NCBI GenBank assembly: GCA_011049115.1
Contig: DSCM01000096.1
Coordinates: forward strand, 17,158-81,157
Direction: 5' to 3'
Source: Pseudomonadota bacterium
Lineage (GTDB): Bacteria > Desulfobacterota > Anaeroferrophillalia > Anaeroferrophillales > Tharpellaceae
Length of the DNA stretch: 64,000 bases
The notes beneath the pieces are model-generated. The model saw only the letters and a list, made by a program, of their open reading frames with translations. It was not told the DNA's origin and searched no databases. Of the stretch, positions 1-39,495 are shown piece after piece (positions within the stretch are counted from its first letter, which is position 1; each line of letters starts with the position of its first letter). A program made the position numbers and the translations under genes.

Positions 1-210
1 CTGCACCGGCATTACCGGGGCATTGATATCGGTATCGGCGAGCAAGTCCGGATTTTTGATCAGAGCATGTACATAATTATCTCCGCCGGTGGTTTTTTTG
101 GGCACCAGCAGGCTGCCGACCAGGTCACTTTCCAACAGCCTGGTTAAAAACGCTTGAATCTCGCCATTAAAGGAGTCAGCAGACAGATCAATGACTGTCG
201 TTTTCATTAT
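1..210 (-). CDS. Partial CDS (N-terminal ~70 codons; gene continues past the window start). N-terminus MKTTVIDLSADSFNGEIQAFLTRLLESDLVGSLLVPKK...NPDLL weakly resembles FrhB/FdhB/AsrA-family Fe-S flavoproteins
   Basis: ATG at ~208-210 on the minus strand, found by hand translation of the reverse complement. It is co-oriented with and immediately downstream of mvhD in the Hdr operon. Family assignment rests on weak pattern similarity only. Confidence 0.3.
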   Translation of the reverse strand, partial: MMKTTVIDLSADSFNGEIQAFLTRLLESDLVGSLLVPKKTTGGDNYVHALIKNPDLLADTDINAPVMPVQ

Positions 211-319
211 CAATTTTCTCCAGATTTAATCATTTTTTGTAATCTACAGCCGCCTAACCCATCGCTTTTCCGCAAGGAAAACTCCGCGTCGACAACCAGC
301 CTGAAATTTTGCAAAAGAA

Positions 320-748
320 CTACAGATCCCATTCGGAAGCCAGCGGATTGGCTCCCTGATCCTGCAGGGCGGCATCGTATTGCCGAATCGTCTCCGCAAA
401 AAGGCGGCCCTCGCTGGCGCTGATCCAGCGCAGCCAGACCCGTTCCGGATCAAGGCCGACACTTTCCATAATCGTTCGCAGCAAGGCAATCCGGCGCCTG
501 GCCTTAAGATTACCGGTCTGGTAATGACAGTCACCGGGATGACAACCACCGATCAGAACCCCGTCGGCCCCGTCAAGCAGCGCTTTCAAAACATAAACAA
601 CATCAATCGCGCCGGAACACATCAGATGAATAATACGGATTCCGGCCGGATACTGCTGTCTGGTAGTGCCGGCCAGATCAGCCCCGGTATAGGTACACCA
701 GTGACAGAGAAAACCGACGATTCTTGGCTCAAAGTTAGGGTCTGCCAT
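320..748 (-). CDS. mvhD: MvhD/FlpD-like methyl-viologen-reducing hydrogenase delta subunit (Hdr-associated [2Fe-2S] protein)
   Basis: 142 aa with Cys pattern FLCHWCTY...HLMCSG...GGCHPGDCHY typical of MvhD. It directly follows the giant HdrA-like gene. Confidence 0.8.
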   Translation of the reverse strand: MADPNFEPRIVGFLCHWCTYTGADLAGTTRQQYPAGIRIIHLMCSGAIDVVYVLKALLDGADGVLIGGCHPGDCHYQTGNLKARRRIALLRTIMESVGLDPERVWLRWISASEGRLFAETIRQYDAALQDQGANPLASEWDL

Positions 749-840
749 ACTTTATTCCTGTATATTTACATTAAAATCAACTACTTAAAAGAAATACCTA
801 CAGTGAAACATGACTGTACGAAAGCATTCACTTCTAAATC

Positions 841-3800
841 TCAGCGCATCAGCTCGCGGCTGACGGCCATCACCTGCCCCTTGTCAAAACCAAGCTGCTG
901 GGTTGCGCCGTTGGGACAGACTGCGGCGCAGGCGCCGCAACCGTGACAAAGGTCGTAATAAACTTCAGCGATCATGGAGCTGAGGTTTATTTGCCGGGCC
1001 CCATAAGGGCAGGCTTCGACACAAAGGCCGCAGCCGCTACATAATCTATTACTGACCTGCACTGCATTTTTAGCGGGGCTCCTTTGCCTGCGGGCCAGAA
1101 CTGTCGCCGCCCGGGAAGCCGCCGCCCGGGAACGAATCAGGGTCTCCTTGATATGCAGCGGGGCCGAGGCCAGGCCGCAATGATAACGCCCCTCGCCGAC
1201 AAAATCAACCAGCGCGGCCTTGCTGTTGGCTTCGGCAAAAAAACCGTACTCATCACGCGGCAATGAAAAGATCTGAGCCAGATCAGCAAAATCCGAGGGC
1301 ACGATACCGGTACTCAAAATCAGCAGATCAGGCCGCAAAGTGACCTTATTTTTCAGAATAAGATCATTGTAACTCAGTTGCAGGGCTGAGCCGACCAGCT
1401 CGACCCGAGGTTTATCCAAAACTTCATAAGGGGTAAACAACACCCCTTGTTCCCGAGCCAGGCGATAATAATCCTCATACAGGCCGTAGGCCCTCAGGTC
1501 ACGATAAAGAACCGTAATCTCGATGGCGAAATCAAGTTCCTTGAGCTTTAAGGCATTTTTTAAAGCCTGTGTACAACAAACCCGGCTGCAATATTCAAGT
1601 TTCCCGGCTTCCCTGGAACCGACGCACTGAATCATAACAATCCGGCGGCTGGAGGCCAGGGTATCAGGCCTGGTCGCAATCCGTTCTTCCAGTTCACTCT
1701 GGGTCAAAACCCGCTCGTCCTGACCTCTAAGGTACTCGTCAGTTACAGCTTCATGGCCTCCGGGCGCCATAATCATGATTCCGTGTTTAATCAGGCGTTC
1801 ACTTTCCTGGCATTCAACCCGAGTGACATAACTCCCAACCCGCCCCTGATGCGCCAGCAAACGTGTATTAAGCAGCACTTCAATACGCGGTTCGGACTCA
1901 ACCCGAGCTCTCATGATAGCCAGTAGCTGCGACGGTTGGGAACCCTCAAGGGTGTAATAAGATTTACGCAAGCGCCCGCCCAGCTCCCCGGTTTTTTCCA
2001 CCAGGGTCACCTGATAGCCGCGACCGGCCAGGGAAAGGGCGCTATTCATCCCGGCAGCTCCACCTCCGACAACCAAGGCCCGTGCTTCCATCACCAGATT
2101 TTGCGTCGGAGCCGGCAAGGTCCGGTAAACCGTCGTGAGAGCGGCAGCAAGCAAGGCCCTGGATTTTTCAAATATAATTTCAGGGCTGCCGGCGTGAACA
2201 AAAAGATTTTGTTCACGCAAATTGGCCACGGCGAAAGCGTTGCGGTTAAAACCGATATCCTCGGCAAAGGCATCAAGTGAACGTTCCAGTTCACGCCCCG
2301 TGCAACCGCCGATGATGATCCGGTTCAAACCATGGGCTCCGATAAAACGGCGCAGACCAAGCAGACCTTCCGGGGCGCATAGATTATCAACTACTTCAAC
2401 GCAGGCCACGGCCGGACGTTTGACAAACTCTTCGGCAAGCGAAGACAGATTGAGCTCCTCCGTCATGGCGCCGTCACAGGCGCAGAGAAAAATTCCGATC
2501 TTCGGTTCTTCCAACCAGACTCCGGTAGGGCTCAAATTAAAGCCATCAAGCTCGGTCTCATTTTCCTCGCTTTCAGGTTCGGCCAGATCCACTGCCACCG
2601 CATCCGCCGCCGCCGCCGCCTCCATCACGGTTTCCGGAATATCCTTAGGACCACAAAAAGCTCCGGCGGCGTAAAGCCCCGGAATTGAGGTCTGCGTCGG
2701 AACGAACTCACCGGTTCGACAGAAACCGTAGTCATCCAGTTCAATTCCGGTCGCCGCGGCAAAATCAAGTTTGGGCGCATCAAAACCCAGGGAAAGAACC
2801 ACCAGGTCAACCTGATCTTCAGCAAAACCGCGACCATCATCGTAGACCAGACTTAAGCCGCCGGTGCGCGGATCTTCCTTGACTGTCGAGACTATCGAAC
2901 GTCGATATTCAATCGCCAATTCATCCTTGGCGCGGTTGAAATAACGCTCGTAATCCTTGCCCATGCCGCGCAGATCCATGTAGTAAACGACAACTTCGGT
3001 TTCAGGACTTCTTTCACGAACAAACATCGCCTGTTTGGTCGCATACATGCAACAAACTGCGGAACAATAGCCCCGGCCACAGGAAACATCGCGGGAACCG
3101 ACACATTGAATAAATGCGATGCGCTTGGGGATCGAACCATCCCGGGGAGAAATCGGGGTTCCCCGACTCGGACCGGAATAACTGATCATACGCTCAAACT
3201 GACGGCTGCTGACCACGTTCTGATAACGTCCGAAACCATACTCTTCTTTTAAAGCCCCATCGACCAGAGAAAAACCGGGGGTCAGAAGAACGGCATCGGC
3301 CTCAAGATCTTCTTCATAAGGGGTTACGGCTTCAAGGTCAATTGCCTGAGTCGGACAGATATTGACACAGGCTCCGCATTTAGTGCAGTTTTCCAGATCA
3401 ATCCTATAGCCCGCTTTGACCATCTTTGGATATTGTTTGTAAATCGCCTTGCGTTCTTCCAACCCGCCGCTGAATTCAAAGGGCACGCTAACCGGACAAA
3501 CCTCAACACAGCGACCGCAATCGATACAGTCTTCCTGGGAAACACCGTACGGCGTAACCGCCAAGCGCAGGACGAAATTGCCGGGCTCCCCCTGTAGGGC
3601 CACAGGCCGGCTGCCGATCCGAATCTCCAGATTTTCATGCAGACGGCACTCGACGAAAGGGCAGTAAGCCGGTTGCTTCGGAGAAAGAAAGCAGACTCCG
3701 CAAGAATTGGTGGGAAACGTATTGTCCAAAAGCGAAAAAAAACCACCAATCGCCGCCTCTTTTTCCACCAGGGTAACCGCAAACCCCTGTTCAGCCAGCT

Positions 3801-3897
3801 GCAGGGCTGCCGTCATACCGGCGAAACCGGCCCCGATCACCGCCACCTTTTTGCGTTTATCATTAATCTTTTTGCTATGTTCAGAGGCCATTTTCAA
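841..3897 (-). CDS. Giant 1018-aa fusion of HdrA-like flavoprotein, MvhD-like domain and a second HdrA-like flavoprotein (HdrL-like)
   Basis: Two Rossmann FAD motifs (VAVIGAGFAGMTAA and ALVVGGGAAGMNSA). Two HdrA signature cysteine clusters (IQCVGSRDVSCGRGYCSAVCCMY and IQCVGSREAGKLEYCSRVCC). Several CxxCxxCxxxCP ferredoxin motifs. A central MvhD-like segment IGIFLCACDG...IIGGCTG. Confidence 0.8.
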   Translation of the reverse strand: MKMASEHSKKINDKRKKVAVIGAGFAGMTAALQLAEQGFAVTLVEKEAAIGGFFSLLDNTFPTNSCGVCFLSPKQPAYCPFVECRLHENLEIRIGSRPVALQGEPGNFVLRLAVTPYGVSQEDCIDCGRCVEVCPVSVPFEFSGGLEERKAIYKQYPKMVKAGYRIDLENCTKCGACVNICPTQAIDLEAVTPYEEDLEADAVLLTPGFSLVDGALKEEYGFGRYQNVVSSRQFERMISYSGPSRGTPISPRDGSIPKRIAFIQCVGSRDVSCGRGYCSAVCCMYATKQAMFVRERSPETEVVVYYMDLRGMGKDYERYFNRAKDELAIEYRRSIVSTVKEDPRTGGLSLVYDDGRGFAEDQVDLVVLSLGFDAPKLDFAAATGIELDDYGFCRTGEFVPTQTSIPGLYAAGAFCGPKDIPETVMEAAAAADAVAVDLAEPESEENETELDGFNLSPTGVWLEEPKIGIFLCACDGAMTEELNLSSLAEEFVKRPAVACVEVVDNLCAPEGLLGLRRFIGAHGLNRIIIGGCTGRELERSLDAFAEDIGFNRNAFAVANLREQNLFVHAGSPEIIFEKSRALLAAALTTVYRTLPAPTQNLVMEARALVVGGGAAGMNSALSLAGRGYQVTLVEKTGELGGRLRKSYYTLEGSQPSQLLAIMRARVESEPRIEVLLNTRLLAHQGRVGSYVTRVECQESERLIKHGIMIMAPGGHEAVTDEYLRGQDERVLTQSELEERIATRPDTLASSRRIVMIQCVGSREAGKLEYCSRVCCTQALKNALKLKELDFAIEITVLYRDLRAYGLYEDYYRLAREQGVLFTPYEVLDKPRVELVGSALQLSYNDLILKNKVTLRPDLLILSTGIVPSDFADLAQIFSLPRDEYGFFAEANSKAALVDFVGEGRYHCGLASAPLHIKETLIRSRAAASRAATVLARRQRSPAKNAVQVSNRLCSGCGLCVEACPYGARQINLSSMIAEVYYDLCHGCGACAAVCPNGATQQLGFDKGQVMAVSRELMR

Positions 3898-3937
3898 CCC
3901 TTAGTTGTTCGCTGAAAGCCGTCGTCTTTTTCAGTCA

Positions 3938-4768
3938 TTACGCGAAAAGTTGCGCCGGATCGTTAAAATGTTTTTTCCACCAGCGTGCCCGGTCCCCGAT
4001 TTGAAAGGCCTCGGCCATCAGTTCAGTGAAATAGAGAATCGGCAGACGCTGTTGTCGAATATCGACATTGGCCTGACACAGAGCGCAGGAAGTCACCAGA
4101 CAGTCAGCCTTGGCGGCCACAGCGTAATCGGCTATCTTATTGACCAGTGCAGTGGTTTTATGGGCATCAATCAGCCCCAGATCGCCACCACAGCAGTCAA
4201 CCTTGCAGGACCAGTCAAGAACCTCGGCTCCGAGATCCGCCATCATGCGGTCTATCCGCCTGGGATTTTCACAGCTGTCGACTCCGGTTACCGCCGCCGG
4301 CCGGACAATGGCGCAACCATAATAACAAACCACCCTCAACCCTTTTAAAGGCTTTCGCACCAATTTTTTAACCGCGGGGCGCAGCTCCTCGCGGGCCAGC
4401 AAATCAACCAGGGAAAGCATGGTTACGCGCTCATCATATTTAAATCCGAATTTTTCTTCAAAAAGAGCTCGCTGGGCTAAATCATGCCGCAGAACATAGT
4501 CGGCCTGCGCCAGGTTACCATAGCAGCCGGCGCAAGGAATGACCAGGTCGCGCCCGCTTTTCTGCGCTTCGCCGACGTTGAAGGCGGAGAGCCCGAGAGC
4601 CAAGGACGACGAAAGGTTATGGGCCGAAGCGGCGCCGCAGCAGCACCAGTCATCCAGCTCCCGCAGTTCAATGCCGAGCGCCTTGATTACCGCCAGACTG
4701 GCTTCAATATACTCCATCGCGGTCGAATGCGAGGTGCATCCGGGATAATATGAATAGGTTTCACCCAT
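3938..4768 (-). CDS. hdrB: Heterodisulfide reductase subunit B-like protein (two CCG domains)
   Basis: 276 aa with YYPGCT, WCCCGA, VVCYYGC, CCGGDLG and TSCALCQ motifs. Confidence 0.85.
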   Translation of the reverse strand: MGETYSYYPGCTSHSTAMEYIEASLAVIKALGIELRELDDWCCCGAASAHNLSSSLALGLSAFNVGEAQKSGRDLVIPCAGCYGNLAQADYVLRHDLAQRALFEEKFGFKYDERVTMLSLVDLLAREELRPAVKKLVRKPLKGLRVVCYYGCAIVRPAAVTGVDSCENPRRIDRMMADLGAEVLDWSCKVDCCGGDLGLIDAHKTTALVNKIADYAVAAKADCLVTSCALCQANVDIRQQRLPILYFTELMAEAFQIGDRARWWKKHFNDPAQLFA

Positions 4769-4874
4769 CGTTTAACTGTGTCCTGATCCGAGATTACCGG
4801 AGAGATAAAAGTTTATGATATCAATGTCTTACCCAGCAAGATCTACAAATCGTCTTGATTTAAAGAACTCCGCC

Positions 4875-5399
4875 CTATTTGCCGGCCTCATTGAAAATCT
4901 TTTTTACGGTTGCGAGATTCTTGCTCTTTTTCGGCAAGATCGGAATTTTACCTCTGAGGAAAAGTTTCAGACCGACATCCAGATCCGAGGTCAGGTTTTT
5001 ACTTCTCAGTTTATAGCTCATCAACATGGTCGCCTCATGCACCCGACCGAATCTTTTGATGCTGTCAATAAACGAGGTGTGCAGGGCCACGGTTGCCGGC
5101 TCAGCCGGAGCAATCCCCTCGGCCAGGCACAAGGCCCGCAGGGAATCCATAACCGGGGCGAGTCTGATTTCATTGGGACAGCGACTGCCGCAAGTCTCAC
5201 AGGAGACACACATCCAGATCGACTTGCTGTTCAAAAGCTCGTCCTTCATGCCGAGCTGAATCATGCGAACCACCACGTTGGGAGCAAAATCAAACTCCTT
5301 GACCATGGGACAGCCAACGCTGCATTTACGGCATTGGTAACAGAGATTCAGCGGCTGACCGCTTTCAGTCATCACTTTTTGCAGAAGGGTTTCAGACAT
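4875..5399 (-). CDS. hdrC: Heterodisulfide reductase subunit C-like 2x[4Fe-4S] protein
   Basis: CYQCRKCSVGCP and CVSCETCGSRCP motifs. The start was moved to the internal ATG (MSETLL), 4 nt after the hdrA stop; the listed upstream start overlaps hdrA. Confidence 0.75.
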   Translation of the reverse strand: MSETLLQKVMTESGQPLNLCYQCRKCSVGCPMVKEFDFAPNVVVRMIQLGMKDELLNSKSIWMCVSCETCGSRCPNEIRLAPVMDSLRALCLAEGIAPAEPATVALHTSFIDSIKRFGRVHEATMLMSYKLRSKNLTSDLDVGLKLFLRGKIPILPKKSKNLATVKKIFNEAGK

Positions 5400-5403
5400 C
5401 TTT

Positions 5404-7386
5404 TTACACCGCCTCGGCTTTGCCGGCAAAATCGCCGATCATCCGGATAAATTGACGGGAAGTCGAATTAATCAACTCACAGGCCTTGTTGGGACAGGCG
5501 GCAATGCAGGCGCCGCAACCCTGGCATACCGCCTGGTTGACCTCGGAAATCCGAGTAAAATTGTTCATCAGGCGAGCTCCGTAAGGGCAGATCTCGATAC
5601 AGATGCCACAGCCGCTGCAGACATCATTTTTAACTTCGGCAATCAGGGGATCGGCAATCAGGGTTTTATTGGAAAACATAGTCTGGATCTTGCCGGCTGT
5701 AGCCAGGGCTTGCGAGACCGTGTCAGTGATATCCTTGGGAGATTGCCCGCACCCGGCGAGATAGACTCCTTTGGTCGAACTTTCCACCGGATAGAGCTTA
5801 ATATGGGTTTCCGAGAGAAAGGCATCGCCGTCAATCGTGACGTTCATCTTTTTGGCAAGATCGCGAATCCCGGTCTTAGGTTCCATGGCCATGGCCAGAA
5901 CCACCAAATCCGCCTCAATCTCCAGCTGGCGGCTACTTAACGTATCACTGGCAAACACCTTGAGCATCCCGTCTTCCGGAATCACCCTGGCAACCCGACC
6001 GCGCACATAAACCAGTTTTTCATCCTCCATGCCCCGCTGAACGAATTCTTCAAAATCACGGCTGTCGGAACGAATATCCATGTAAGAGATATAGGCCGTA
6101 CCGGTTTTAACCTGGCGGCGGTAAAGCCGCGCCTGTTTTGCCGTATACATGCAGCAGGCGCGGGAACAGTACGCTTTATGACGTTCCGGATCACGAGAAC
6201 CGGCACACTGAATAAAGACCACGCTTTCAGGAACCTTACCATTCGAAGGACACACAACCCTGCCGCCGGTAGGACCTTTGGGATCAAGCAGACGTTCAAA
6301 AGTCAAGGCGTCGATGACATCAGGTATGTCACCACCTCCGTATTCGGGGAGATTGGCCGGGTTGTAAAGGTCATAGCCGGTAGCCATGACGATCGCTCCG
6401 ACAAATTCTTTCTGCAAGGCGGGAATCGCCCCAAGATCTATCGCTTTCTCGAGGCAGGCATCACTACATAAAGTACAGGGCTCGACCTCATGGGAAGGGG
6501 CAAAATGTAAACAATCTACCTGGCGCAAAACCGGAATACGGGAAGATTCAAACTGGTTGTAACGAAAGATAGCCCCACGCCGGCTGAGTCCGCGATTAAA
6601 TTCATCGGGATTCGATACCGGACAAACTTCAATGCATTTGCCGCAGGCCGAGCAACGGGCGATGTCGACAAAAGCCGGCTGACTGCGAATGGTAACATTG
6701 AAATTACCAACGTAACCTTCCAGGTTCTCGACCTCTGAACTAGTATAAACTTTTATTTTATGATGGGCGACGACCTCGGCAATCTTCTGTTCCAACATTT
6801 CGGGAACGTTTTGGAAATAGGGAAAAGTCTGACTGATCTGAGCCATGTGGCCGCCGATGGCCGGTTCCTTTTCGATAATCACCACTTCATAGCCGGCATT
6901 GGCCAGGTCAAGCGCCGACATGATCCCGGCGATACCGCCACCGACGACACAAACGCGCTTGGTAAGATCAATCGTGATTGTCTCCAACGGCAGATTTTCT
7001 TTAACCTTGTCAAGCGTCCCGGCAATAATATTGACCGCCTTGGCCGTGGCCAAGGGTTTGTCATTCTGATGAACCCAGCTGCATTGCTCCCGAATATTGG
7101 CGATTTCCAGCAAATAAGAGTTCAAACCAACCAAACCCGCCGCCTTGCGAAAGGTATTTTCATGCATGCGGGGCGAACAACAGGCCACCACCACACCATC
7201 CAACCCCTTTTCCACGATCGTATCCTTGACCTTCTGCTGACCGGGATCGGAGCACATATACATGTAGTTTTCGGCATGCACCACGCCGTCCATTTTCAAG
7301 GTCTCAGCCACGGCCTTGTCCACATCGACACTGCTGGCGATGTTGGAACCGCACCAGCAGACAAAAACACCTAGTTTCTTTTCCAT
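5404..7386 (-). CDS. hdrA: Heterodisulfide reductase subunit A (canonical full-length HdrA)
   Basis: 660 aa. N-terminal Cys-rich domain (VCWCGSN), FAD motif VCVVGGGIAGIMSA, inserted ferredoxin, signature IQCAGSRDPERHKAYCSRACCMY, and C-terminal CSGCGICIEICP / CQGCGACIAACP. Confidence 0.85.
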   Translation of the reverse strand: MEKKLGVFVCWCGSNIASSVDVDKAVAETLKMDGVVHAENYMYMCSDPGQQKVKDTIVEKGLDGVVVACCSPRMHENTFRKAAGLVGLNSYLLEIANIREQCSWVHQNDKPLATAKAVNIIAGTLDKVKENLPLETITIDLTKRVCVVGGGIAGIMSALDLANAGYEVVIIEKEPAIGGHMAQISQTFPYFQNVPEMLEQKIAEVVAHHKIKVYTSSEVENLEGYVGNFNVTIRSQPAFVDIARCSACGKCIEVCPVSNPDEFNRGLSRRGAIFRYNQFESSRIPVLRQVDCLHFAPSHEVEPCTLCSDACLEKAIDLGAIPALQKEFVGAIVMATGYDLYNPANLPEYGGGDIPDVIDALTFERLLDPKGPTGGRVVCPSNGKVPESVVFIQCAGSRDPERHKAYCSRACCMYTAKQARLYRRQVKTGTAYISYMDIRSDSRDFEEFVQRGMEDEKLVYVRGRVARVIPEDGMLKVFASDTLSSRQLEIEADLVVLAMAMEPKTGIRDLAKKMNVTIDGDAFLSETHIKLYPVESSTKGVYLAGCGQSPKDITDTVSQALATAGKIQTMFSNKTLIADPLIAEVKNDVCSGCGICIEICPYGARLMNNFTRISEVNQAVCQGCGACIAACPNKACELINSTSRQFIRMIGDFAGKAEAV

Positions 7387-8807
7387 TAAACCGCTTCCTG
7401 CTGCTTATTACGTCGTACAGAAGAAAGAAAAACCTGAGCTTTGCTGGATGCGGCGCTGCCCTGAGCCGCTGAATCGGCAATATCCTTGGCTCCCAGACAG
7501 CAACCCGCCAGATAAATCCCAGGCCGGCCGCTCTCGACCGGCGAGAGCTTATAGTTTTCCTCGATGAAAAAACCGTCTTTATTGGACTGCAGACCCAGGA
7601 TTTCAGCCAGCTCCTGCGCTCCCTCATTGGGAACCATGGCCGCCGCCAGCACCACCAGGTCGGCTGCAATCTCTATTTTTCTACCACTCAGGGTATCGGC
7701 TCCCTGCACTATAACCTTATCTCCTTCGCGGTAAAGACGGGCGGCCCGGCCGCGAATATAGATGAGCTCTTCTTCCGCTACCGACTGCTGGATAAACTGC
7801 TCATAACCCTTTCCGGTTGACCGAATATCAATATAAAAAATATAGACCTGGCCGTCATGAACCTTATGTTTGTAAAGGCGGGCGTGCTTGGCGGTATACA
7901 TACAGCAGACCCGGGAACAATAGGATTTATGAAACTCAGGATTCCGTGAACCGACACACTGGATAAAAACAATCTCTTTCGGAGTTTTCCCGTCGGAAGG
8001 GCGAACCATGGCTCCGGCCGACGGCCCCGAGGCGGAAAGATAGCGCTCAAAGGTCAGACCGTCGATGACATCGGGAATCTCGCCACCTCCGAATTCAGGC
8101 ATCTTCTTTTTCCAGTCGTAAATATCGAAACCAGTGGCCACGATAATGGCTCCAACCTGAACCTCGAAGAAACTTTCCTGCTGCTCGTAATCAATCGCCC
8201 CGACCGGACAGACCTTGGCGCAAACCCCACATTTACCCCTGGTTAGGTAGCGGCAGCGTTCAGCATCGATCACCGGCTTGTTTGGCACCGCCTGCGGCGA
8301 CAGCGTATAAATCGCGGTCATTTTACCGGCATCCCGTTCAAACATGGCGATCCCATTGCTCGGACACTTCTGAATACAGGTACCGCACCCGGTGCATTTA
8401 TTCCAGTCAACATAAGTTTTTTTCTGTCTGACCCGAATCGTGAAATTACCCGGTTCGCCTGTCAGGGCCTCTACCTCGCAACTGGTTTTCAGGGTAACCT
8501 TGGGATGCTGCCCCGACTCAACCGTTCGTGGGGTCAAAGTACACTGGGCGCAATCAAGCGTCGGAAAAGTCTCGGAAAGTTGCAGCATCCGACCACCGAC
8601 CGACGGTAGCCTCTCAACCAAAAGTACCTGATAACCGGCATTCCCGAGGTCGATAGCAGAGGTAATACCGGTGATTCCGCCTCCGATAACCATTACCCGA
8701 CGATCAACCGGAACGCTTTCAAAGTCGCTCATACCCCCGAATACGCAGGCGCAGGAAAGCTGTTCGCCTTTTTGTTCGCCGCTCAGTTCAATTATTTCAG
8801 CCATCAA
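7386..8807 (-). CDS. Truncated HdrA-like flavoprotein lacking the N-terminal and C-terminal ferredoxin domains
   Basis: 473 aa. FAD motif VMVIGGGITGITSA and signature IQCVGSRNPEFHKSYCSRVCCMY. Inserted ferredoxin CTGCGTCIQKCP / CGVCAKVCP. Its stop forms a TAATG overlap with the next hdrA start. Confidence 0.75.
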   Translation of the reverse strand: MMAEIIELSGEQKGEQLSCACVFGGMSDFESVPVDRRVMVIGGGITGITSAIDLGNAGYQVLLVERLPSVGGRMLQLSETFPTLDCAQCTLTPRTVESGQHPKVTLKTSCEVEALTGEPGNFTIRVRQKKTYVDWNKCTGCGTCIQKCPSNGIAMFERDAGKMTAIYTLSPQAVPNKPVIDAERCRYLTRGKCGVCAKVCPVGAIDYEQQESFFEVQVGAIIVATGFDIYDWKKKMPEFGGGEIPDVIDGLTFERYLSASGPSAGAMVRPSDGKTPKEIVFIQCVGSRNPEFHKSYCSRVCCMYTAKHARLYKHKVHDGQVYIFYIDIRSTGKGYEQFIQQSVAEEELIYIRGRAARLYREGDKVIVQGADTLSGRKIEIAADLVVLAAAMVPNEGAQELAEILGLQSNKDGFFIEENYKLSPVESGRPGIYLAGCCLGAKDIADSAAQGSAASSKAQVFLSSVRRNKQQEAV

Positions 8808-8819
8808 TCAAACCTTATC

Positions 8820-9695
8820 TCAGGAAACCAGACCCTTGTCCCGCAACAGCGGAAGCGGATCAATCAGATTACGCTCAAAGCCCAGATCTTCAGCGGGCAG
8901 ATCGAGGGCAATCGCCAGCAACTGGGTAAAATAGACTACCGGAATGGTTTTAAAGGCCGCATCGCTTTGCACAATCTCAGCTTGCCGGTCATCAAGATTA
9001 AACTGACATAAAGGACAAGTGGTGATCACCAGATCGGCTCCGTTGCCGGAAGCATTCCGGAGAATGTCACGCGAGCAGCGAGTTGCCGTTGTCATCGAGT
9101 GAACCGTCTGAAAAGCACCGCAGCATTCGATCCGGTAAGGAAAGGGCACCGGTTCACCGCCTAGAGCCCGAACAAAATCTTCAAAAATAGTCGGGTTTTC
9201 CATGGCATCAAGAGCGATCTCCTTGACCGGACGCAGCAGCAGGCATCCATAATAACAGGCCACCTTGAGACCGGCCAGAGGTTTAACCACCGTATCCTGC
9301 AAGACTTTAAAACCGATTTCATCGCGCAATACCTGGAGATAATGCAGAACATCAACCTCTCCATGGTATTGACGTTCAATAAAATCGGTAATCTTGCTCC
9401 GCCGCTCCTCGTCGTTGCGCATGACGTTGTTGGTGCGCTTAAGCACATTGAAACAGACCGAACAAAGCGTTACCAGCTTATTATCGCCCCGATCTTTGGT
9501 ATCGGCCAGAATCCTGGTCGGCCCCGACATCGCGATATGATAATCGTTGGTCAACGGAAAGGTTGCACCGCAACAGGTCCAGTCGGGCAGTTCGTCAAGC
9601 TCAAAACCCAGCTTCCGGCTGCATTCGCGACCGGCGTCATCAAGTTTCTTGGCCTTGGTATAAAGGGTACATCCGGGAAAGTATGAATACTTCAT
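8820..9695 (-). CDS. hdrB: Heterodisulfide reductase subunit B-like protein (two CCG domains)
   Basis: 291 aa with FPGCT, WTCCGA, VACYYGC, ECCGAF and TTCPLCQ motifs. Confidence 0.85.
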   Translation of the reverse strand: MKYSYFPGCTLYTKAKKLDDAGRECSRKLGFELDELPDWTCCGATFPLTNDYHIAMSGPTRILADTKDRGDNKLVTLCSVCFNVLKRTNNVMRNDEERRSKITDFIERQYHGEVDVLHYLQVLRDEIGFKVLQDTVVKPLAGLKVACYYGCLLLRPVKEIALDAMENPTIFEDFVRALGGEPVPFPYRIECCGAFQTVHSMTTATRCSRDILRNASGNGADLVITTCPLCQFNLDDRQAEIVQSDAAFKTIPVVYFTQLLAIALDLPAEDLGFERNLIDPLPLLRDKGLVS

Positions 9696-9712
9696 CTTTT
9701 ACTCTTGAGAAT

Positions 9713-10129
9713 TTAGAGTGGAAGGAACTTCCGATAGCCGCTGATCATCGCGATCTGCGGGGCCCGGGCCAGATATTCTTTGGAAAAATCAGTAACATCA
9801 ATATGTGCCGTTCCGCCCACTTCGCGCAGACGCAAAACCCGCAGGGCCTCCATGATTTTAGAGATATCCACTCCCTTGGGACAGCGAGCCTGACACATCA
9901 TGCAGGCGGCGCAGACCCACATTGACTTACAGTCTTTAACTTCATTTTCCAGTCCAAGTTGCAGATAGCGCACCACCTGACTGGGCAGAAGGTCCATTTC
10001 ATCAACTGCGGGACAACCTGCCGAACAATTGCCGCATTGATAACAATTAAAGAAATTTTCGCCGCTGATCTCGGCGACCTTGTTGATGAAATCACTTTTT
10101 ACCTGGGAGCGGTAAATCCTGGTTTTCAT
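9713..10129 (-). CDS. hdrC: HdrC-like 2x[4Fe-4S] ferredoxin subunit
   Basis: 138 aa with CYQCGNCSAGCP and CAACMMCQARCP motifs. Confidence 0.8.
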   Translation of the reverse strand: MKTRIYRSQVKSDFINKVAEISGENFFNCYQCGNCSAGCPAVDEMDLLPSQVVRYLQLGLENEVKDCKSMWVCAACMMCQARCPKGVDISKIMEALRVLRLREVGGTAHIDVTDFSKEYLARAPQIAMISGYRKFLPL

Positions 10130-10142
10130 GGGTTATTATCCT

Positions 10143-10700
10143 TTATCTGATATAGGGCTTAACGCCCTGTTCATACAAATCGTTACCGTAGATGTCATTG
10201 ATCACAACCACCGGAAAATCCTCGACCTCAATCCGACGAATGGCTTCCGGACCCAGATCTTCATAGGCGACAACTTCAGCCTTTTTTATACGCTGGGCGA
10301 GTAGTGCCCCAGCCCCGCCGGTCGCAGCGAAATAAACCGCATGATATTTTTCGATCGCATCACGCACTTCCCGGCTGCGACCGCCCTTGCCGATCATGCC
10401 CTTTAGACCTTCAGCCAGCAGTCGGGAAGAATAGGAATCCATGCGATAACTAGTAGTCGGACCGGCGGAACCGATAACCTTGCCGGGTTTAGCCGGAGTC
10501 GGCCCAACAAAATAAATAATCTCACCCTGCAAGGGTATCGGCAACGATTCTCCCTTAGCCAGGAGATCGACAAGCCGCTTATGCGCGGCATCGCGGCCGG
10601 TATAAATCGTACCACTGAGCAACACCCGATCGCCCGCTTTCAGATCAGCCACCACTCCTTCACTCAGCGGCGGCGTCAGACGAATAACCCGATCCATCAT
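10143..10700 (-). CDS. Class I (Fe-S) fumarate hydratase / tartrate dehydratase beta subunit (Fumerase_C-type)
   Basis: LSGTIYTGRDAAHKRL and GPTTSYRMD motifs. Start set at MMDRV, whose ATG overlaps the alpha-subunit stop in an ATGA arrangement. Confidence 0.75.
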   Translation of the reverse strand: MMDRVIRLTPPLSEGVVADLKAGDRVLLSGTIYTGRDAAHKRLVDLLAKGESLPIPLQGEIIYFVGPTPAKPGKVIGSAGPTTSYRMDSYSSRLLAEGLKGMIGKGGRSREVRDAIEKYHAVYFAATGGAGALLAQRIKKAEVVAYEDLGPEAIRRIEVEDFPVVVINDIYGNDLYEQGVKPYIR

Positions 10701-11548
10701 AAAATCGCCTCCTGGTGCCGGGCTGCATGACATTGAATATTAATCGCCAACGGCAAACTGGCAATATGACAGGGTTGCATTTTGACATGAACGGCAAAAC
10801 TGGTGATGCGACCGCCGAGCCCCTGGGGTCCGACTCCTAAATTATTGATCGCGGTCAAAAGTTCGTCCTCAAGATTTTGCAGAGCCGGATCGGGATTGGG
10901 GCTGCCGACTTCACGCAAAAGCGCTTCTTTCGCCAACATGGCCGACCGCTCGAAATTACCACCGATACCAACGCCGACAATTGTCGGCGGACAGGGATTC
11001 CCCCCCGCCTGGCGCACCCAGGCAACAACCTGCTCCTTAATCCCGGCAACGCCATCGGCCGGTTTGAGCATGACCACCTTCGACATATTTTCACTGCCAC
11101 CCCCTTTGGGGGCCACAATGATGCTTAATTGCTCTCCGGGCACAAGGTTGTAATGTATAATTGCCGGAGTATTATCGCCGGTATTGGCCCTGGTAAAGGG
11201 ATGACAGGCTGATTTCCGCAGGAACCCGTCCTGGTATCCCCGTCGGACGCCGGCATTGATTGCGCCCTCAAGACTGCCGCCGACAATTCTGACGTCCTGT
11301 CCCAAAGTAACAAAAACCACGGCCAGACCGGTATCCTGGCAGATCGGCACTTGCTCTTTTGCCGCGATTGCCGCATTTTCCTGAAGCTGCCTGATAATAT
11401 CCCCGCCGGCCGGAGACTCTTCCCTGGCGGCTGCCAGGTCCAAGGCCCGTTTCATATCCGACCCGAGATTACAATTAGCCTCTATACATAAACGAGCTAC
11501 CGTTTTTTCGACCAGCGAAACATCAATTTCACGCATTTTAAGCACCAC
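10697..11548 (-). CDS. Class I (Fe-S) fumarate hydratase / tartrate dehydratase alpha subunit
   Basis: 283 aa. N-terminal catalytic domain with the conserved CQDTG region and the archaeal-type two-subunit FumA/TtdA architecture. Confidence 0.75.
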   Translation of the reverse strand: MVLKMREIDVSLVEKTVARLCIEANCNLGSDMKRALDLAAAREESPAGGDIIRQLQENAAIAAKEQVPICQDTGLAVVFVTLGQDVRIVGGSLEGAINAGVRRGYQDGFLRKSACHPFTRANTGDNTPAIIHYNLVPGEQLSIIVAPKGGGSENMSKVVMLKPADGVAGIKEQVVAWVRQAGGNPCPPTIVGVGIGGNFERSAMLAKEALLREVGSPNPDPALQNLEDELLTAINNLGVGPQGLGGRITSFAVHVKMQPCHIASLPLAINIQCHAARHQEAIL

Positions 11549-11583
11549 TTTTTAAATAGCAGCTTTAACCAAAGCCGGCTGTT

Positions 11584-11612
11584 TGTATACTGTATACCCC
11601 ATTGTTTGTCAA
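11584..11612 (-). promoter_or_regulatory. Putative sigma70-type promoter of the fumarase-Hdr operon; the -10 element lies within a tandem GTATAC motif
   Basis: Minus strand reads TTGACA-N17-TATACA about 35 nt upstream of the fumA start. The only plausible RBS (GGTG) is weak. Confidence 0.3.
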
Positions 11613-11839
11613 CTGCAATATAAAAAAAATTTATTTTTTTTTAACAGATCGTTTCATCTATAATTTCATAACGTTAACCTTTTGCAAGAGCAACCTGAGC
11701 TCAATTTTCGGACCATTTCACTCTCATCCAAACATAAATTCTTCATCGACGGGGGCACATCAAACAAATAGATTCTTTTCATCGACCGACAAGATCAAAA
11801 TGATGCCCGAGCATAGCGCACAATAATGACCATAGCACA

Positions 11840-11876
11840 AAACGAAAAAAGCCCCGACAAACAAGGCTGTCGGGGC
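11840..11876 (-). terminator. Rho-independent terminator after the 395-aa lyase gene
   Basis: Hairpin GCCCCGACA-loop-TGTCGGGGC followed on the minus strand by TTTTTTCGTTTTG. Confidence 0.55.
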
Positions 11877-11893
11877 TGAATAAACAATCAAAA

Positions 11894-13081
11894 TTAATTT
11901 TTAGACTGCAGTACCTCCGCTGGGACCACAGCTTCTACAGACCACTCCTCGGGAATAATCTGGCCAGGTTTTTCGCCATTTTTCTCCTTGATCTTAGACA
12001 ATTCAGGACGTTTAAAATCCTCCCGAACATGCTTTGGAATGCGGCCATTAAGAATCGATTCCGAACGCAGGCGACGACCAACCGTGCGTTCCATCATGGT
12101 GCCCAGCTGGAGAATCCGGTCAATGTCAATTCCGGTTTCGATTCCCATCTCGTCCATCATTACCAACATGTCTTCAAGAACGGAAAGACCAACCACATTA
12201 GGATCCTTGTAGTAGTAGTCTCCGGTCCCCAAACCCGGGACTCCGTCAACAAAATTAGCCGGCTGGCCACCAGTACCGCCGATGGTTGCTTCAAAGTTAG
12301 TGATTCCCGCCTGTAATGCCGCCAAAACATTGGCGTTGCCCCATCCCCGGGTGACATGAAAATGAGCGACATGAAGATCTGGATTGGGAAGAGCGTCCAG
12401 AATCATCGAGAAATAGCGATAGACTTTGTTCGGCGGAGCCGATCCATCATGGTCAGCATGCTCGATATCATCAGCCCCGATACTGAGCCAGCGACGAGTA
12501 AACTCAACCGCGTCCTCAAATTTAGTCGGCCCGGAAATCGGACTACCCCAAATCGTACTGACAGTTCCGCACATTTTGATTCCGACATCATGGCACTTTT
12601 TAATGCAGCGTTCGGCTTCACGCCAGTACTGCGGCAAGGTTGAACGGGAATTGGCGAAATGATGCTGTTCGTCAGTCGAAACCATCATCAGAATACGATC
12701 CGGGCCATAACCGCGCTTTTTCATCTCGATGGCCCGATCAACCGCACTTTCCCGAATGGTAATACAAGTCCATTCGATATCTTCATGTTTAATTCCACGC
12801 TTGGCCAAACGTTTCTTAAAAAGATCGTCATGCACGCTCTTCATTAACTCTTCGGCGTCTTCAAACTGAGGCATATTCCTGGGGTCGCCCAGATTGGTAA
12901 CCTCCATCCGTTTAATACCGGCAAATGCCATTTCCTGCAGATAAAAAATTTTGGCCCGGGTGGGAATAAAGTGTTCCTCATGCTGGAATCCGTCACGGAC
13001 AGTAATATCACCAATATTGACTTTTTTCGGCATTCTTTTAAAAACATCAAAAAGATCGTGGCTTGACATATTTTCCTCCAC
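11894..13081 (-). CDS. Divergent HMG-CoA lyase-like (DRE-TIM metallolyase family) protein with extra N- and C-terminal regions
   Basis: RDGFQ and HFHVTRGWGNANVLAALQAG motifs, parallel to the RDGxQN and HxHDTxG motifs of HMGL. 395 aa with a ~60-aa lysine-rich C-terminal tail. Confidence 0.55.
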   Translation of the reverse strand: MEENMSSHDLFDVFKRMPKKVNIGDITVRDGFQHEEHFIPTRAKIFYLQEMAFAGIKRMEVTNLGDPRNMPQFEDAEELMKSVHDDLFKKRLAKRGIKHEDIEWTCITIRESAVDRAIEMKKRGYGPDRILMMVSTDEQHHFANSRSTLPQYWREAERCIKKCHDVGIKMCGTVSTIWGSPISGPTKFEDAVEFTRRWLSIGADDIEHADHDGSAPPNKVYRYFSMILDALPNPDLHVAHFHVTRGWGNANVLAALQAGITNFEATIGGTGGQPANFVDGVPGLGTGDYYYKDPNVVGLSVLEDMLVMMDEMGIETGIDIDRILQLGTMMERTVGRRLRSESILNGRIPKHVREDFKRPELSKIKEKNGEKPGQIIPEEWSVEAVVPAEVLQSKN

Positions 13082-13268
13082 ACAATTATTCTTCTGATTA
13101 ATTTCCGGAAATCTTACCTACCCCCGCTGCTGATCTTTGGTATCTACCGATCAAGACCAACAAGAATACGGAACGGGCGCCTGCCACCCAAATCTTTCCG
13201 GATTAAAAGAACTCTGGCTCCGCCTGATCGATGTAATTCAGTCAATCTTAAGATAGGCGGGGCGTAAA

Positions 13269-14048
13269 CTATTCGCCAGTATAAACCGGCTCTCTTTTTT
13301 CCCTGAAAGCGGTCAGACCTTCAATGCGATCTTTAGTCGGGATGGTCACGGCATAGCAATTTGATTCGATAGCCAGGCCGCTACCTAAATCAACTTCACT
13401 GCCGTAGTTTATCGCGTACTTGGCCATTTCTAAGGCCACCGGGGCATTCTTCTTAATCTTTGCCGCCATATTCAAGGCGGCATCGAGAAGTTCACCTTGT
13501 GGCGCCACCTGATTAACAAGACCGATAGCCAGAGCTTCATCTGCCTTGGCCCGATGGGCGGTGAAAATCAACTCCTTAGCTTTGCCTTTACCGAGAAGAC
13601 GAGCCAGCCGCTGAGTTCCGCCGGCACCGGGAATAATTCCCAGGCTGGTTTCAGTCAGACCCATGGTCGCACTGGAGACCGCTATCCTGATATCACAAGC
13701 CAGGGCCAGCTCCGTTCCTCCTCCGAAAGCAAAACCATTGACCGCGGCGATCACAGGCTGGGGAAGATTTTCGACCATCGTGAAGGTGTTGCGAATCATC
13801 TGAATATACTGTTTAACCTCGATCGGGGTCATGGTCGCCCGTTCTTTGAGATCAGCGCCGGAGCAAAAAGATTTCTCCCCGGCACCGGTGATGATCACTA
13901 CCCTTACGGAACGATCAACACTGATCCCACTTACCAGTCTATTCAGGGCAGCGAGAAGCTCACGATTCAAAGAGTTCATGCTTTCGGGGCGATTTAAAGT
14001 TACAATCAAAACCCCGTCACGGTTTTCGCTTAAGATCACTTCAGACAT
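13269..14048 (-). CDS. Enoyl-CoA hydratase (crotonase family; methylglutaconyl-CoA hydratase-like)
   Basis: 259 aa with VIITGAGEKSFCSGADL and AVNGFAFGGGTELALACD crotonase motifs. Confidence 0.85.
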   Translation of the reverse strand: MSEVILSENRDGVLIVTLNRPESMNSLNRELLAALNRLVSGISVDRSVRVVIITGAGEKSFCSGADLKERATMTPIEVKQYIQMIRNTFTMVENLPQPVIAAVNGFAFGGGTELALACDIRIAVSSATMGLTETSLGIIPGAGGTQRLARLLGKGKAKELIFTAHRAKADEALAIGLVNQVAPQGELLDAALNMAAKIKKNAPVALEMAKYAINYGSEVDLGSGLAIESNCYAVTIPTKDRIEGLTAFREKREPVYTGE

Positions 14049-14152
14049 CCGTTCCCCCCAAAAAAAATCTTAATAACCCGACTAAAAGTTTAAGAACATA
14101 TAAATGTTTTTTTTCTTCTTTCGCAAACAAAAAAGATGATAAAAGTATTGTA

Positions 14153-15091: not shown

Positions 15092-15218
15092 TATGGAACG
15101 AAATTAAAAACCCAACTTGCGAAAAATAGCCCCTCCCCTTGGACTAGAAGTCCCGGGAAAGTGCGAACCTCATTCCCAGGACTTCAAAAAAAATATCAGG
15201 CTACCTCAGGCAAAAAGC

Positions 15219-16370: not shown

Positions 16371-16567
16371 AGGTCTACCCTTCCTTAAAATTCCCACCTT
16401 ACGTTAACTGTTAAACCAATCACCAAAAAAAAGGAACCCGACTTTATCTTTCCTTCGAGAGGGGTTGTAAATTATATTATTTCCGTAGGCTTGTCAACGA
16501 AAATCCCCAAACATAATTATGTTTTCATTGTAAGCAGCATAATCCTGCGCGAAAGTCACAATAAAGA

Positions 16568-16631: not shown

Positions 16632-16708
16632 GGCGGTGTAGCTCAGATGGTTAGAGCATACGGCTCATATCCGTAGTGTCCGGGGTTCAATTCCCTGCAC
16701 CGCCACCA
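16632..16708 (+). tRNA. tRNA-Met (anticodon CAU), elongator-type
   Basis: 77-nt cloverleaf with a 7-bp acceptor stem GGCGGTG/CACCGCC, anticodon stem TACGG/CCGTA, loop CTCATAT, T-loop TTCAATT and an encoded CCA. Confidence 0.85.
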
Positions 16709-21890: not shown

Positions 21891-21930
21891 TTTATACCCT
21901 GATTTACCCCCGTCCATCAAATGCCATGGC

Positions 21931-39448: not shown

Positions 39449-39495
39449 AGGTAAAGCCCCGACCAAGATATCTCTTACGCAGAAAAAGGACAATT

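Follow-up and report, generated by a model that had tools for sequence, protein, structure and literature searches.

The window analysed here, the 64,000-nt stretch of contig DSCM01000096.1 whose first lines are given above, carries at its left end (positions 1-11548, minus strand) the larger part of a predicted operon that encodes three consecutive C4 steps, by which malate is converted to fumarate, then to succinate and lastly to succinyl-CoA, together with a large set of heterodisulfide reductase (Hdr)-type proteins. The redox genes for the middle step, the interconversion of fumarate and succinate, lie between the fumarase genes and those for succinyl-CoA synthetase (sucC and sucD). We think it somewhat probable that in this operon fumarate reduction drives the reduction of ferredoxin by flavin-based electron bifurcation, as part of an oxaloacetate-to-succinyl-CoA branch.

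The open reading frame (ORF) listing and profile searches placed ten complete genes and a partial eleventh in the window, all on the minus strand, and bore out an earlier note on this DNA as to the gene list, the coordinates, the strand and the partial gene leaving the window. The operon runs past window position 1, and its downstream continuation was taken from the source contig (European Nucleotide Archive ERZ27245514 k141_181232, a 156-kb metagenome contig), on which five genes were completed or added; off-window coordinates are numbered as in the locus designated L002 (Table 1). The full order is fumA-fumB-hdrC1-hdrB1-hdrA(short)-hdrA(full)-hdrC2-hdrB2-hdrA(tandem)-mvhD-fdhB-like-frdB-like-frdA-like-sucC-sucD. 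The intergenic distances between the called genes are -4, 13, 17, 15, -1, 4, 106, 46, 92 and 112 nt, mostly within the 0-106 nt given in the earlier note, the upper limit of which was passed once, by 6 nt.

The fumarase genes come first, as had been claimed: fumA is the first gene of the operon because it is preceded by a terminator-like hairpin and then by a promoter-like site, which falls within the 345-nt gap 5' of fumA. An Rfam scan of the whole window detected two tRNAs only, and no riboswitch or leader ahead of fumA. The hairpin stands directly 3' of an upstream gene for a protein resembling 3-hydroxy-3-methylglutaryl-CoA (HMG-CoA) lyase, and closes a set of four genes (acyl-CoA dehydrogenase, HMG-CoA lyase, enoyl-CoA hydratase and the HMG-CoA lyase-like gene). 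These acyl-CoA genes were considered as operon members and rejected, as the hairpin lies between and none of them is syntenic in related loci.

The proteins of the operon region have been deposited as HDS16580.1 to HDS16592.1 under the label 'Proteobacteria bacterium', and the proteins clustering with them at an identity of at least 90% carry the label Candidatus Tharpella sp. This is a deep-branching lineage related to Desulfobacterota, known from metagenome-assembled genomes (MAGs) alone and described as oxidisers of fatty acids and hydrocarbons (PMC9213671); the paper describing it mentions neither Hdr nor fumarate.

Table 1. Coordinates of the operon genes and of associated features. Positions refer to the window unless preceded by L002. 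Where two bit scores are given, the second is the curated cut-off of the model.
Feature	Position	Strand	Description
fumA	10697-11548	minus	alpha subunit of a two-subunit class I (Fe-S) fumarate hydratase; Pfam Fumerase 5e-111
fumB	10143-10700	minus	beta subunit; Fumerase_C 5.5e-60; overlaps fumA by ATGA
hdrC1	9713-10129	minus	Fer4_8/Fer4_17 matches; two CxxCxxCxxxC ([4Fe-4S]) motifs; TIGR03290 70 bits vs 160
hdrB1	8820-9695	minus	two CCG domains (CCG at residues 41 and 191, CxxC at 78 and 227); TIGR03288 176.6 bits vs 345
short hdrA	7386-8807	minus	473 aa; residues 30-463 match HdrA2 model positions 134-562
full hdrA	5404-7386	minus	660 aa; residues 4-654 match HdrA2 model positions 1-641, 665 bits vs 1100
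hdrC2	4875-5399	minus	two CxxCxxCxxxC motifs; 68.7 bits vs 160
hdrB2	3938-4768	minus	two CCG domains, two CCG/CxxC sets; 114 bits vs 345
tandem hdrA	841-3897	minus	1018 aa; profile, structure-model and motif evidence
mvhD	320-748	minus	FlpD family [2Fe-2S] electron-transfer adaptor, 1.6e-48
fdhB-like	1..207 (first 69 codons); rest L002 10542-11690	minus	382-aa FdhB/FrhB-like iron-sulfur flavoprotein
frdB-like	L002 11752-12528		off-window; 258-aa Fe-S protein, weak 2Fe-2S signature, two [4Fe-4S] motifs
frdA-like	L002 12720-14399		off-window; 559-aa FrdA/SdhA/TfrA-like FAD_binding_2 flavoprotein
sucC	L002 14497-15660		off-window; succinate-CoA ligase model, 583 bits vs 370
sucD	L002 15750-16622		off-window; 472 bits vs 336
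Promoter-like site	11617..11644	minus	TTAAAA-16-TATATT, 9/12 matches; consensus match only
Terminator-like hairpin	11850..11877	minus	11-pair stem with 7 G-C pairs, 6-nt loop, then TTTTTTCGTTT (T-run); top site of scan
Upstream acyl-CoA gene set	11894-16397	minus	acyl-CoA dehydrogenase, HMG-CoA lyase, enoyl-CoA hydratase, 395-aa HMG-CoA lyase-like protein
NuoE/NuoF/2Fe-2S trio	59949-63176	minus	2Fe-2S/4Fe-4S protein, 238 aa; NuoF-like flavin mononucleotide protein, 687 aa; NuoE-like protein, 193 aa

Subunits, architecture and conservation

The candidate catalytic subunit is the 559-aa FrdA-like flavoprotein encoded just beyond the window. Its best NCBIfam match was TfrA (NF004900; 323.5 bits against a cut-off of 718, with model positions 5-405 of 546 covered), followed by SdhA/FrdA and then NadB (255 bits), and every curated cut-off was missed. 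The top solved relatives were SdhA of Mycobacterium smegmatis Sdh1 (1.5e-66) and FrdA/SdhA of Escherichia coli. When the protein was aligned to solved SdhA chains (1nek_A and 7d6v_A), the HPTG histidine, the T-E motif, the RDV arginine, the PTLHY histidine and the NRL arginine were all found to be kept, and an asparagine occupied the position of the histidine to which flavin adenine dinucleotide (FAD) is linked in SdhA. The family comprises at least 120 clusters above 64% identity, all of them metagenomic; the asparagine was present in 119/120 homologues, the motifs QYHPTG, PT[LV]HYQNGG and NRLMGNSL in all 120, and LITEK.RG.G in 119. No match to Succ_DH_flav_C (PF02910) was detected in the 559-aa protein, which has an N-terminal extension of 95 aa. 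In an AlphaFold2 model (predicted local distance difference test score, pLDDT, 75.8; predicted template modelling score, pTM, 0.81) its nearest structures were 1kf6_A (E. coli FrdA) and 7d6v_A. These results show a flavoprotein predicted to have the FrdA/SdhA fold, a complete fumarate/succinate site and non-covalently bound FAD. The invariant loss of the covalent-FAD histidine provides a simple sequence marker for the family. With this flavoprotein in the operon there is no need to suppose, as had been suggested, that HdrB acts on the C4 substrate.

Of the enzymes on either side of this step, FumA scored 406.3 bits against the NCBIfam equivalog model 'fumarate hydratase' (NF004885, cut-off 276) and FumB 283.6 bits against NF005310 (cut-off 238), whereas tartrate dehydratase models were far under their cut-offs (TtdA, 156 against 365 for FumA; 97 against 264 for the beta subunit). 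Thus, the fumarase assignment of the earlier note held against another hydro-lyase family, and the family searches likewise confirmed Fumerase/Fumerase_C, CCG, HdrA and FlpD. FumA, the start of which was put at 11536 by the gene caller, has cysteines at positions 70 (CQDTG), 186 (CPP) and 273, which, going by the family, are candidates for the three ligands of the catalytic [4Fe-4S] cluster. SucC and SucD both pass the cut-offs of their models (Table 1).

Between mvhD and frdA-like lie the genes for two further iron-sulfur proteins. The top solved relatives of the FdhB-like protein were FdhB chains from the Fdh-Hdr complexes of methanogens (9t1s_M, 2e-31 and nearly full length; 7bkb_E; 8rvu_E), and it belongs to the type of protein docking on MvhD-HdrA in those complexes. 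The 258-aa FrdB-like protein contained no CCG domain and reached 27 bits against the TfrB model (cut-off 385). Neither the operon nor the 20-kb loci L001 and L002 contained a gene for a hydrogenase (MvhAG) or FdhA catalytic subunit, and the window operon had no FlxA-like protein (NAD_binding_1/DHODB_Fe-S_bind), MvhD alone being FlxD-like. None of the operon subunits showed a hydrophobic stretch of the membrane-helix type, and on this showing all the proteins of the operon are predicted to be soluble.

The Hdr-type proteins have the domains and motifs of HdrABC: two CCG domains in HdrB, two [4Fe-4S] motifs in HdrC, and the FAD fold and cluster motif in HdrA. The short HdrA consists of the FAD/thioredoxin-reductase-like core with an inserted ferredoxin domain (motifs GGGITG and CVGSR...CSRVCC), and has neither the N-terminal domain nor a ferredoxin domain at the C-terminus; the start codon of the full hdrA overlaps its stop. 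Four HdrA-type units are encoded altogether, and a motif scan found GxGxxG and C-x-G-S-R...C-S-x-x-C-C in each, so that the signature reported for all four stood, except that CVGSR reads CAGSR in one of them. Against the curated HdrA cut-off of 1100 the units scored 469-665 bits.

The 1018-aa tandem HdrA had been described as an HdrA-MvhD-HdrA fusion, which was not upheld. Its middle aligned with the N-terminal domain of the 660-aa HdrA (26% identity, E 1e-16) as against E 1.3 for MvhD, and PF02662 (FlpD) was found in 0/120 of its homologues, which rules out an internal MvhD domain. The layout is a short-HdrA-like part (residues ~1-440), an HdrA N-terminal domain (~460-600), and a core with C-terminal ferredoxin domain (~600-1018). 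Since the middle matches the HdrA N-terminal domain and not MvhD, the tandem protein is a short HdrA fused to a full HdrA, and the tandem gene is the fused counterpart of the short/full gene pair. An AlphaFold2 model built with 52 homologues was confident (pLDDT 82.6, pTM 0.84). Foldseek matched it to full HdrA (8rvy_A over 651 columns, with the full-length 5odc_A and 7bkd_A also among the best) and, at 37% identity and a target TM of 0.90, to a chain of the HdrA core (8rvu_a, 431 columns). The tandem protein also matches sHdrA (6tjr). The operon therefore contains two paralogous modules of HdrC-HdrB-(short HdrA/full HdrA), the pair being two genes in one module and a single fused gene in the other. 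Methanogen HdrA acts as a homodimer (5odc structure), and for that reason each short/full pair may constitute a built-in asymmetric dimer.

A scan with the tandem HdrA, taking one genome per species, gave 80 loci in which ORFs were called and each assigned to the best-matching operon protein. All of the loci that contained both FumA and the flavoprotein (17/17) were colinear with the window, in two tiers with tandem HdrA identities of 63-74% and ~45%; they are labelled Thermodesulfobacteriota, 'Deltaproteobacteria' or Syntrophaceae. In the 40 loci with a tandem HdrA below 43% identity, FumAB or the flavoprotein was found in none. The conservation of fumAB with the Hdr genes that the earlier note had called for was thus seen, and its view that Hdr and fumarase form one unit tied to C4-dicarboxylate conversion gained from the FrdB-like, FrdA-like and SucCD genes just off the window, in an order that is conserved.

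The flanks of the colinear loci differed. A malate dehydrogenase gene (mdh) lies directly 5' of fumA in L013 and L014, NuoF-like and 2Fe-2S genes occupy that place in L005, and in L087 a NuoE/NuoF/2Fe-2S trio comes right after sucD, with methylmalonyl-CoA mutase nearby on the opposite strand. A sister architecture was seen in three loci (L084, L085 and L088), with the order mdh-fumA-fumB-hdrC-hdrB-hdrA-mvhD-(three Fe-S/unknown proteins)-FlxA-like-frdB-like-frdA-like-sucC-sucD-ferredoxin-korA-korB-korG. Its flavoproteins have 67-68% identity, and it is followed by a canonical sdhA-sdhB-sdhE set whose SdhA retains the FAD-linking histidine. As the sister architecture differs in the electron-input part, that part is exchangeable, while the FrdBA-like pair, HdrCB and the C4 enzymes are constant. 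Thus, the association of fumarase, Hdr and fumarate reductase is widespread in uncultured Desulfobacterota-like lineages, with at least two interchangeable electron-input designs.

Proposed function and alternatives

The reading that the operon couples fumarate reduction to ferredoxin reduction is suggested by the combination of a soluble FrdAB-like pair with non-covalent FAD, HdrBC, HdrA flavins with ferredoxin domains, MvhD, neighbouring enzymes that make fumarate and use succinate, and the ferredoxin and kor genes of the sister operon. The proteins would assemble into a single cytoplasmic complex, with fumarate in the place that CoM-S-S-CoB, the heterodisulfide of coenzymes M and B, occupies in methanogens. 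A mid-potential two-electron donor would enter through the FdhB-like/MvhD side; NADH, delivered by a NuoEF-like module, seems the likeliest donor, with F420H2 or formate as alternatives. An HdrA flavin would split the electron pair, one electron passing downhill by way of HdrC/HdrB and then the FrdB-like clusters, to reach the FAD of the FrdA-like protein and finally fumarate, and the other being pushed uphill to ferredoxin. Fumarate hydratase would supply the fumarate, and SucCD would pass succinate on toward succinyl-CoA.

The NuoE/NuoF/2Fe-2S trio of the window may serve the complex as its module for NADH input. It adjoins the operon in some relatives and lies 48 kb from it here; its 687-aa NuoF-like protein has extra ferredoxin motifs, and no gene for a catalytic subunit of hydrogenase or formate dehydrogenase was seen beside it.

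The potential of ferredoxin is about -450 mV. The standard potentials (E0') of fumarate and NADH are +33 mV and -320 mV, respectively (PMC5861303). From these values we computed that the reaction of 2 NADH with fumarate and oxidised ferredoxin would release ~43 kJ/mol. Fumarate reduction normally conserves energy through a membrane-bound, quinone-dependent enzyme; a soluble complex making reduced ferredoxin from the free energy of fumarate would, if this is correct, be a different mode of energy conservation, and could power ferredoxin-dependent steps of CO2 fixation such as 2-oxoglutarate synthase. The 13 redox and hydratase subunits together with SucCD are concrete targets for purification and cryo-electron microscopy.

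Several points weigh against this proposal. Bifurcation is deduced from homology to HdrA only, and no enzyme of this kind has been purified. No Hdr-type protein of the operon reaches the curated cut-offs for CoB-CoM heterodisulfide reductase, and by their scores these proteins are Hdr-like, not demonstrably CoM-S-S-CoB reductases. The non-cubane clusters of HdrB normally handle a disulfide, so a thiol cofactor may be involved instead of direct wiring. The operon is without an obvious primary dehydrogenase, and the proposal does not account for the need for two HdrCB-HdrA-HdrA modules. The methylmalonyl-CoA mutase beside it in L087 gives no direction. Finally, in the closest named relatives, the fatty-acid- and hydrocarbon-oxidising Ca. 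Tharpella (PMC9213671), the enzymes could run oxidatively.

With regard to the two modules, they might act in series as a cascade of two bifurcations yielding up to two reduced ferredoxins per fumarate, an idea that we regard as distinctly unlikely and on which the present evidence favours neither side. The first module would split the donor electrons between ferredoxin and an internal mid-potential site, either at HdrB or on a bound thiol/disulfide, and the second would split these mid-potential electrons between fumarate and a second low-potential acceptor. By our computation the reaction of 3 NADH with two ferredoxins and fumarate would still be exergonic by ~18 kJ/mol, and a cascade, if true, would explain the strict conservation of both modules; we know of no flavin-based bifurcating enzyme that harvests the unusually large gap between NADH and fumarate twice.

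A second possibility is that the same complex works oxidatively, succinate being oxidised by confurcation, in which its high-potential electrons join low-potential ones from ferredoxin to reduce NAD+ or a similar carrier. The succinate would come from SucCD, either in a methylmalonyl-CoA pathway or as fumarate is regenerated for hydrocarbon activation, and the complex would stand in for the reverse electron transport of known syntrophs, which is membrane-bound and depends on menaquinone. We consider this unlikely, even though all the C4 enzymes are reversible, the nearest named relatives are predicted degraders of fatty acids and hydrocarbons (PMC9213671), many of the loci in the ~45% tier are labelled Syntrophaceae, and methylmalonyl-CoA mutase adjoins the operon in L087. 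The acyl-CoA genes upstream in the window, which might also be taken to favour oxidation, are cut off by the terminator-like hairpin and are not syntenic in the relatives. Covalent FAD is held to be necessary for succinate oxidation, and the replacement of the FAD-linking histidine throughout the family, together with a computed cost of ~43 kJ/mol for the reverse reaction with NADH and ferredoxin under standard conditions, therefore speaks against the oxidative direction. Moreover, a canonical SdhABE that has the histidine is encoded separately, next to the Hdr-linked enzyme, in the sister loci, and the context of mdh, ferredoxin and kor fits a reductive branch. The earlier proposal of a bifurcating complex remains a reasonable one, whereas the link it made to succinate oxidation in syntrophs is disfavoured by the asparagine and by these neighbouring genes.

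It is also improbable, in our judgement, that the operon encodes a soluble fumarate reductase without bifurcation, in which the Hdr proteins do no more than conduct electrons like a wire or relay them through a thiol/disulfide, as Tfr and Hdr do in methanogens. Fumarate would then receive electrons from NAD(P)H, from F420H2 or from a thiol, and ferredoxin would not be reduced, much as in the soluble five-subunit NADH-fumarate reductase of Hydrogenobacter. The FrdB-like protein and the HdrB/HdrC set together equal the domain content of TfrB (PMC2754724), the existence of a soluble NADH-dependent fumarate reductase is cited in PMC13147460, and bifurcation is not known for some HdrA homologues, sHdrA (6tjr) among them. 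However, four HdrA flavin units with full cluster motifs, a C-terminal ferredoxin domain and MvhD would be a heavy investment for a wire, and in the sister operon a small ferredoxin and a ferredoxin-dependent 2-oxoacid oxidoreductase follow right after sucCD.

The resemblance to sHdr systems that had been pointed out concerns the C-B-A...C-B gene order, to which the sHdrA match of the tandem protein can be added. It does not extend to the flanks, where the genes are for C4 enzymes and not for sulfur carriers: no lipoate-binding, TusA or DsrE genes were present in the 30 kb examined, and an sHdr assignment was rejected.

That the flavoprotein and hydro-lyase act on other substrates, be it L-aspartate (as in NadB), mesaconate, citramalate, methylsuccinate or another enoate, is very unlikely. 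The flavoprotein is under every curated cut-off, lacks a detectable Succ_DH_flav_C and carries its N-terminal extension, and NadB models do reach 255 bits, yet TfrA and SdhA models outrank them. Class I fumarases are able to hydrate mesaconate; against this, FumA and FumB pass the equivalog cut-offs for fumarate hydratase, SucCD pass those for succinate-CoA ligase, and mdh is syntenic in relatives. The HMG-CoA-lyase-like and enoyl-CoA hydratase genes that lie upstream in the window, and that might hint at such substrates, are not conserved with the operon.

Independence of the Hdr and C4 genes, as mere neighbours, could be argued from gaps of 92-191 nt inside the cluster, but it is scarcely plausible given that C4 genes stand on both sides of the Hdr block in identical order in all the informative loci, down to 45% identity, that they do so again in the sister architecture, where the electron-input module is another one, and that the analogous operon of Pseudoclostridium thermosuccinogenes is co-regulated (PMC7282089).

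Neighbouring genes in the window and in related loci

Among the acyl-CoA genes upstream of the operon, the acyl-CoA dehydrogenase had the acryloyl-CoA reductase AcrC as its top model, below cut-off, and the HMG-CoA lyase scored 330 bits, above cut-off; the 395-aa HMG-CoA lyase-like protein is unusual (146 bits, below cut-off). SelB, the selenocysteine-specific elongation factor, was recognised from its Pfam domains at 19977-21920 (minus strand), from which it follows that the organism makes selenoproteins; no in-frame TGA was found in the operon genes within the window. The tRNA genes that are the window's only Rfam matches lie at 16632-16705 and 51542-51615, both on the plus strand. Two ORFs, at 39361-40950 (plus strand, 529 aa) and 44966-46624 (minus strand, 552 aa), gave no Pfam match at E <= 1e-6, and the latter sits amid genes for glycosyltransferases, methyltransferases and an ABC exporter. 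At 48310-49545 (minus strand) there is a gene of the isocitrate/isopropylmalate dehydrogenase family, possibly for a tricarboxylic acid (TCA)-branch enzyme, which is unlinked to the operon.

Related loci also showed some departures from the common pattern. In a Syntrophaceae MAG (L014, 2378-3331) a UbiA-family prenyltransferase gene stands between fumB and hdrC1 in the same orientation, and no other gene for a membrane protein was seen within any of the operon copies. An Anaerolineales MAG (L012, 4264-15767) has both Hdr modules, MvhD and the FdhB-like gene in window order, with genes for FtsK and a LysE transporter upstream in place of fumAB and an extra short-HdrA-like gene between the FdhB-like gene and the contig end; from this locus, either the double module also occurs outside a C4 context or the C4 genes are elsewhere. 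In a Chloroflexota MAG (L028, 2462-9931) a tandem HdrA/MvhD/FdhB-like cluster is preceded by genes for a FAD_binding_2 flavoprotein, for a reductive activase of the RACo type, for malic enzyme and for an HdrD-like protein in which HdrC and HdrB are fused. This FAD_binding_2 protein, considered as a distant member of the system, had no detectable BLAST similarity to the 559-aa flavoprotein and was not used as support.

A tandem HdrA homologue with 39% identity was found in a Desulfobacteraceae MAG (L051), where it adjoins, with HdrCB and MvhD, a methylene-tetrahydrofolate reductase (MTHFR); the tandem-HdrA module can therefore be attached to different reductases. The more distant tandem-HdrA loci were considered as candidate BamCDEF (benzoyl-CoA reductase) clusters; the one examined, L051, has the MTHFR gene as its neighbour instead. 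The MvhD homologue of L051, which follows the tandem HdrA (12442-13590), is interrupted by an in-frame stop, possibly a selenocysteine codon, so that two ORFs result, and is followed by the MTHFR gene and one for a FrhB-family protein.

Comparison with known systems

The combination of fumarase with Hdr genes had been put forward as an undescribed arrangement. This was incorrect, as it has been described in the 'succinate operon' of P. thermosuccinogenes (PMC7282089), and related tfrAB-flx-hdr-kor clusters are on record (PMC6315080). The clostridial operon comprises fumarate hydratase, Flx-Hdr and fumarate reductase; its transcription was measured and found to be co-regulated, and it was proposed to couple succinate formation to the reduction of ferredoxin (PMC7282089). 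As there, the window operon unites genes for fumarate hydratase, for Hdr-type proteins and for a soluble fumarate reductase of two subunits in one co-directional cluster, and the two share the proposal of NADH-driven fumarate reduction with reduction of ferredoxin. The Flx-type design of Pseudoclostridium is that of the sister operons (L084, L085 and L088). Unlike the clostridial operon, as judged from its description, the window has no FlxABC, and has a second HdrCB, three extra HdrA units (one short, one tandem), the FdhB-like protein and SucCD.

In tubeworm symbionts and Thioflavicoccus mobilis, tfrAB is interleaved with flxABCD-hdrABC and korABCD in reductive TCA clusters (PMC6315080; PMC13147460). 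Here too a TfrA-like soluble fumarate reductase is found among Hdr genes and enzymes of the reductive TCA cycle, and a bifurcating complex was proposed that would feed fumarate reductase and a ferredoxin-dependent 2-oxoglutarate synthase. These clusters differ from the window in belonging to Gammaproteobacteria, in their Flx-type input, and in having neither the fumarase-first order nor a tandem HdrA or FdhB-like protein.

The TfrAB of methanogens, which brings CCG-domain chemistry to a fumarate reductase module (PMC2754724), resembles the present system in joining a soluble fumarate reductase module to chemistry of the HdrB type in a reductive C4 branch. The Fe-S part and the two CCG domains, which are fused in TfrB, are separate proteins here, and the equivalog level is missed for both TfrA and TfrB by the scores given above. 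Tfr uses free CoM-SH and CoB-SH, with Hdr as a separate enzyme. The Mvh-Hdr and Fdh-Hdr supercomplexes (5odc, 7bkb, 8rvu, 9t1s) provide the top solved relatives of the operon's HdrA, HdrB, HdrC, MvhD and FdhB-like proteins, all of which are present, and follow the same logic, in that an exergonic acceptor drives the reduction of ferredoxin. In contrast to them, the operon has no hydrogenase or FdhA, its predicted acceptor is fumarate, reached through the FrdAB-like pair, and not heterodisulfide, and the methanogen HdrA homodimer is replaced by short/full pairs, of which one is a fusion.

Complex II (SdhABCD/FrdABCD and type E SdhABEF) shares with the operon the FrdA/SdhA fold and catalytic residues as well as a partner with a 2Fe-2S plus two-cluster layout, and type E SdhABEF also uses a subunit with CCG domains. 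The operon differs from it in the missing membrane anchor, covalent-FAD histidine and detectable Succ_DH_flav_C, in the 95 extra N-terminal residues, and in that no quinone is implied. The MTHFR cluster of L051 is similar in having a tandem HdrA with HdrC, HdrB and MvhD beside a reductase whose substrate is of comparatively positive potential; its partner is MTHFR and not an FrdAB-like pair, its MvhD is interrupted, and it has a single Hdr module.

In the literature found, fumarate-dependent reduction of ferredoxin has not been demonstrated for any member of the fumarase-Hdr-fumarate reductase group, and no description was encountered of a form with two HdrCB, split and fused HdrA pairs, an FdhB-like protein and SucCD and without Flx. 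A bifurcating fumarate reductase has so far been raised from gene order alone, in one clostridium and in sulfur-oxidising symbionts. Thus, the concept of a fumarase-Hdr-fumarate reductase system is already known, whereas its double, tandem-HdrA/FdhB-like form, with four HdrA flavin units and no described counterpart, is new.

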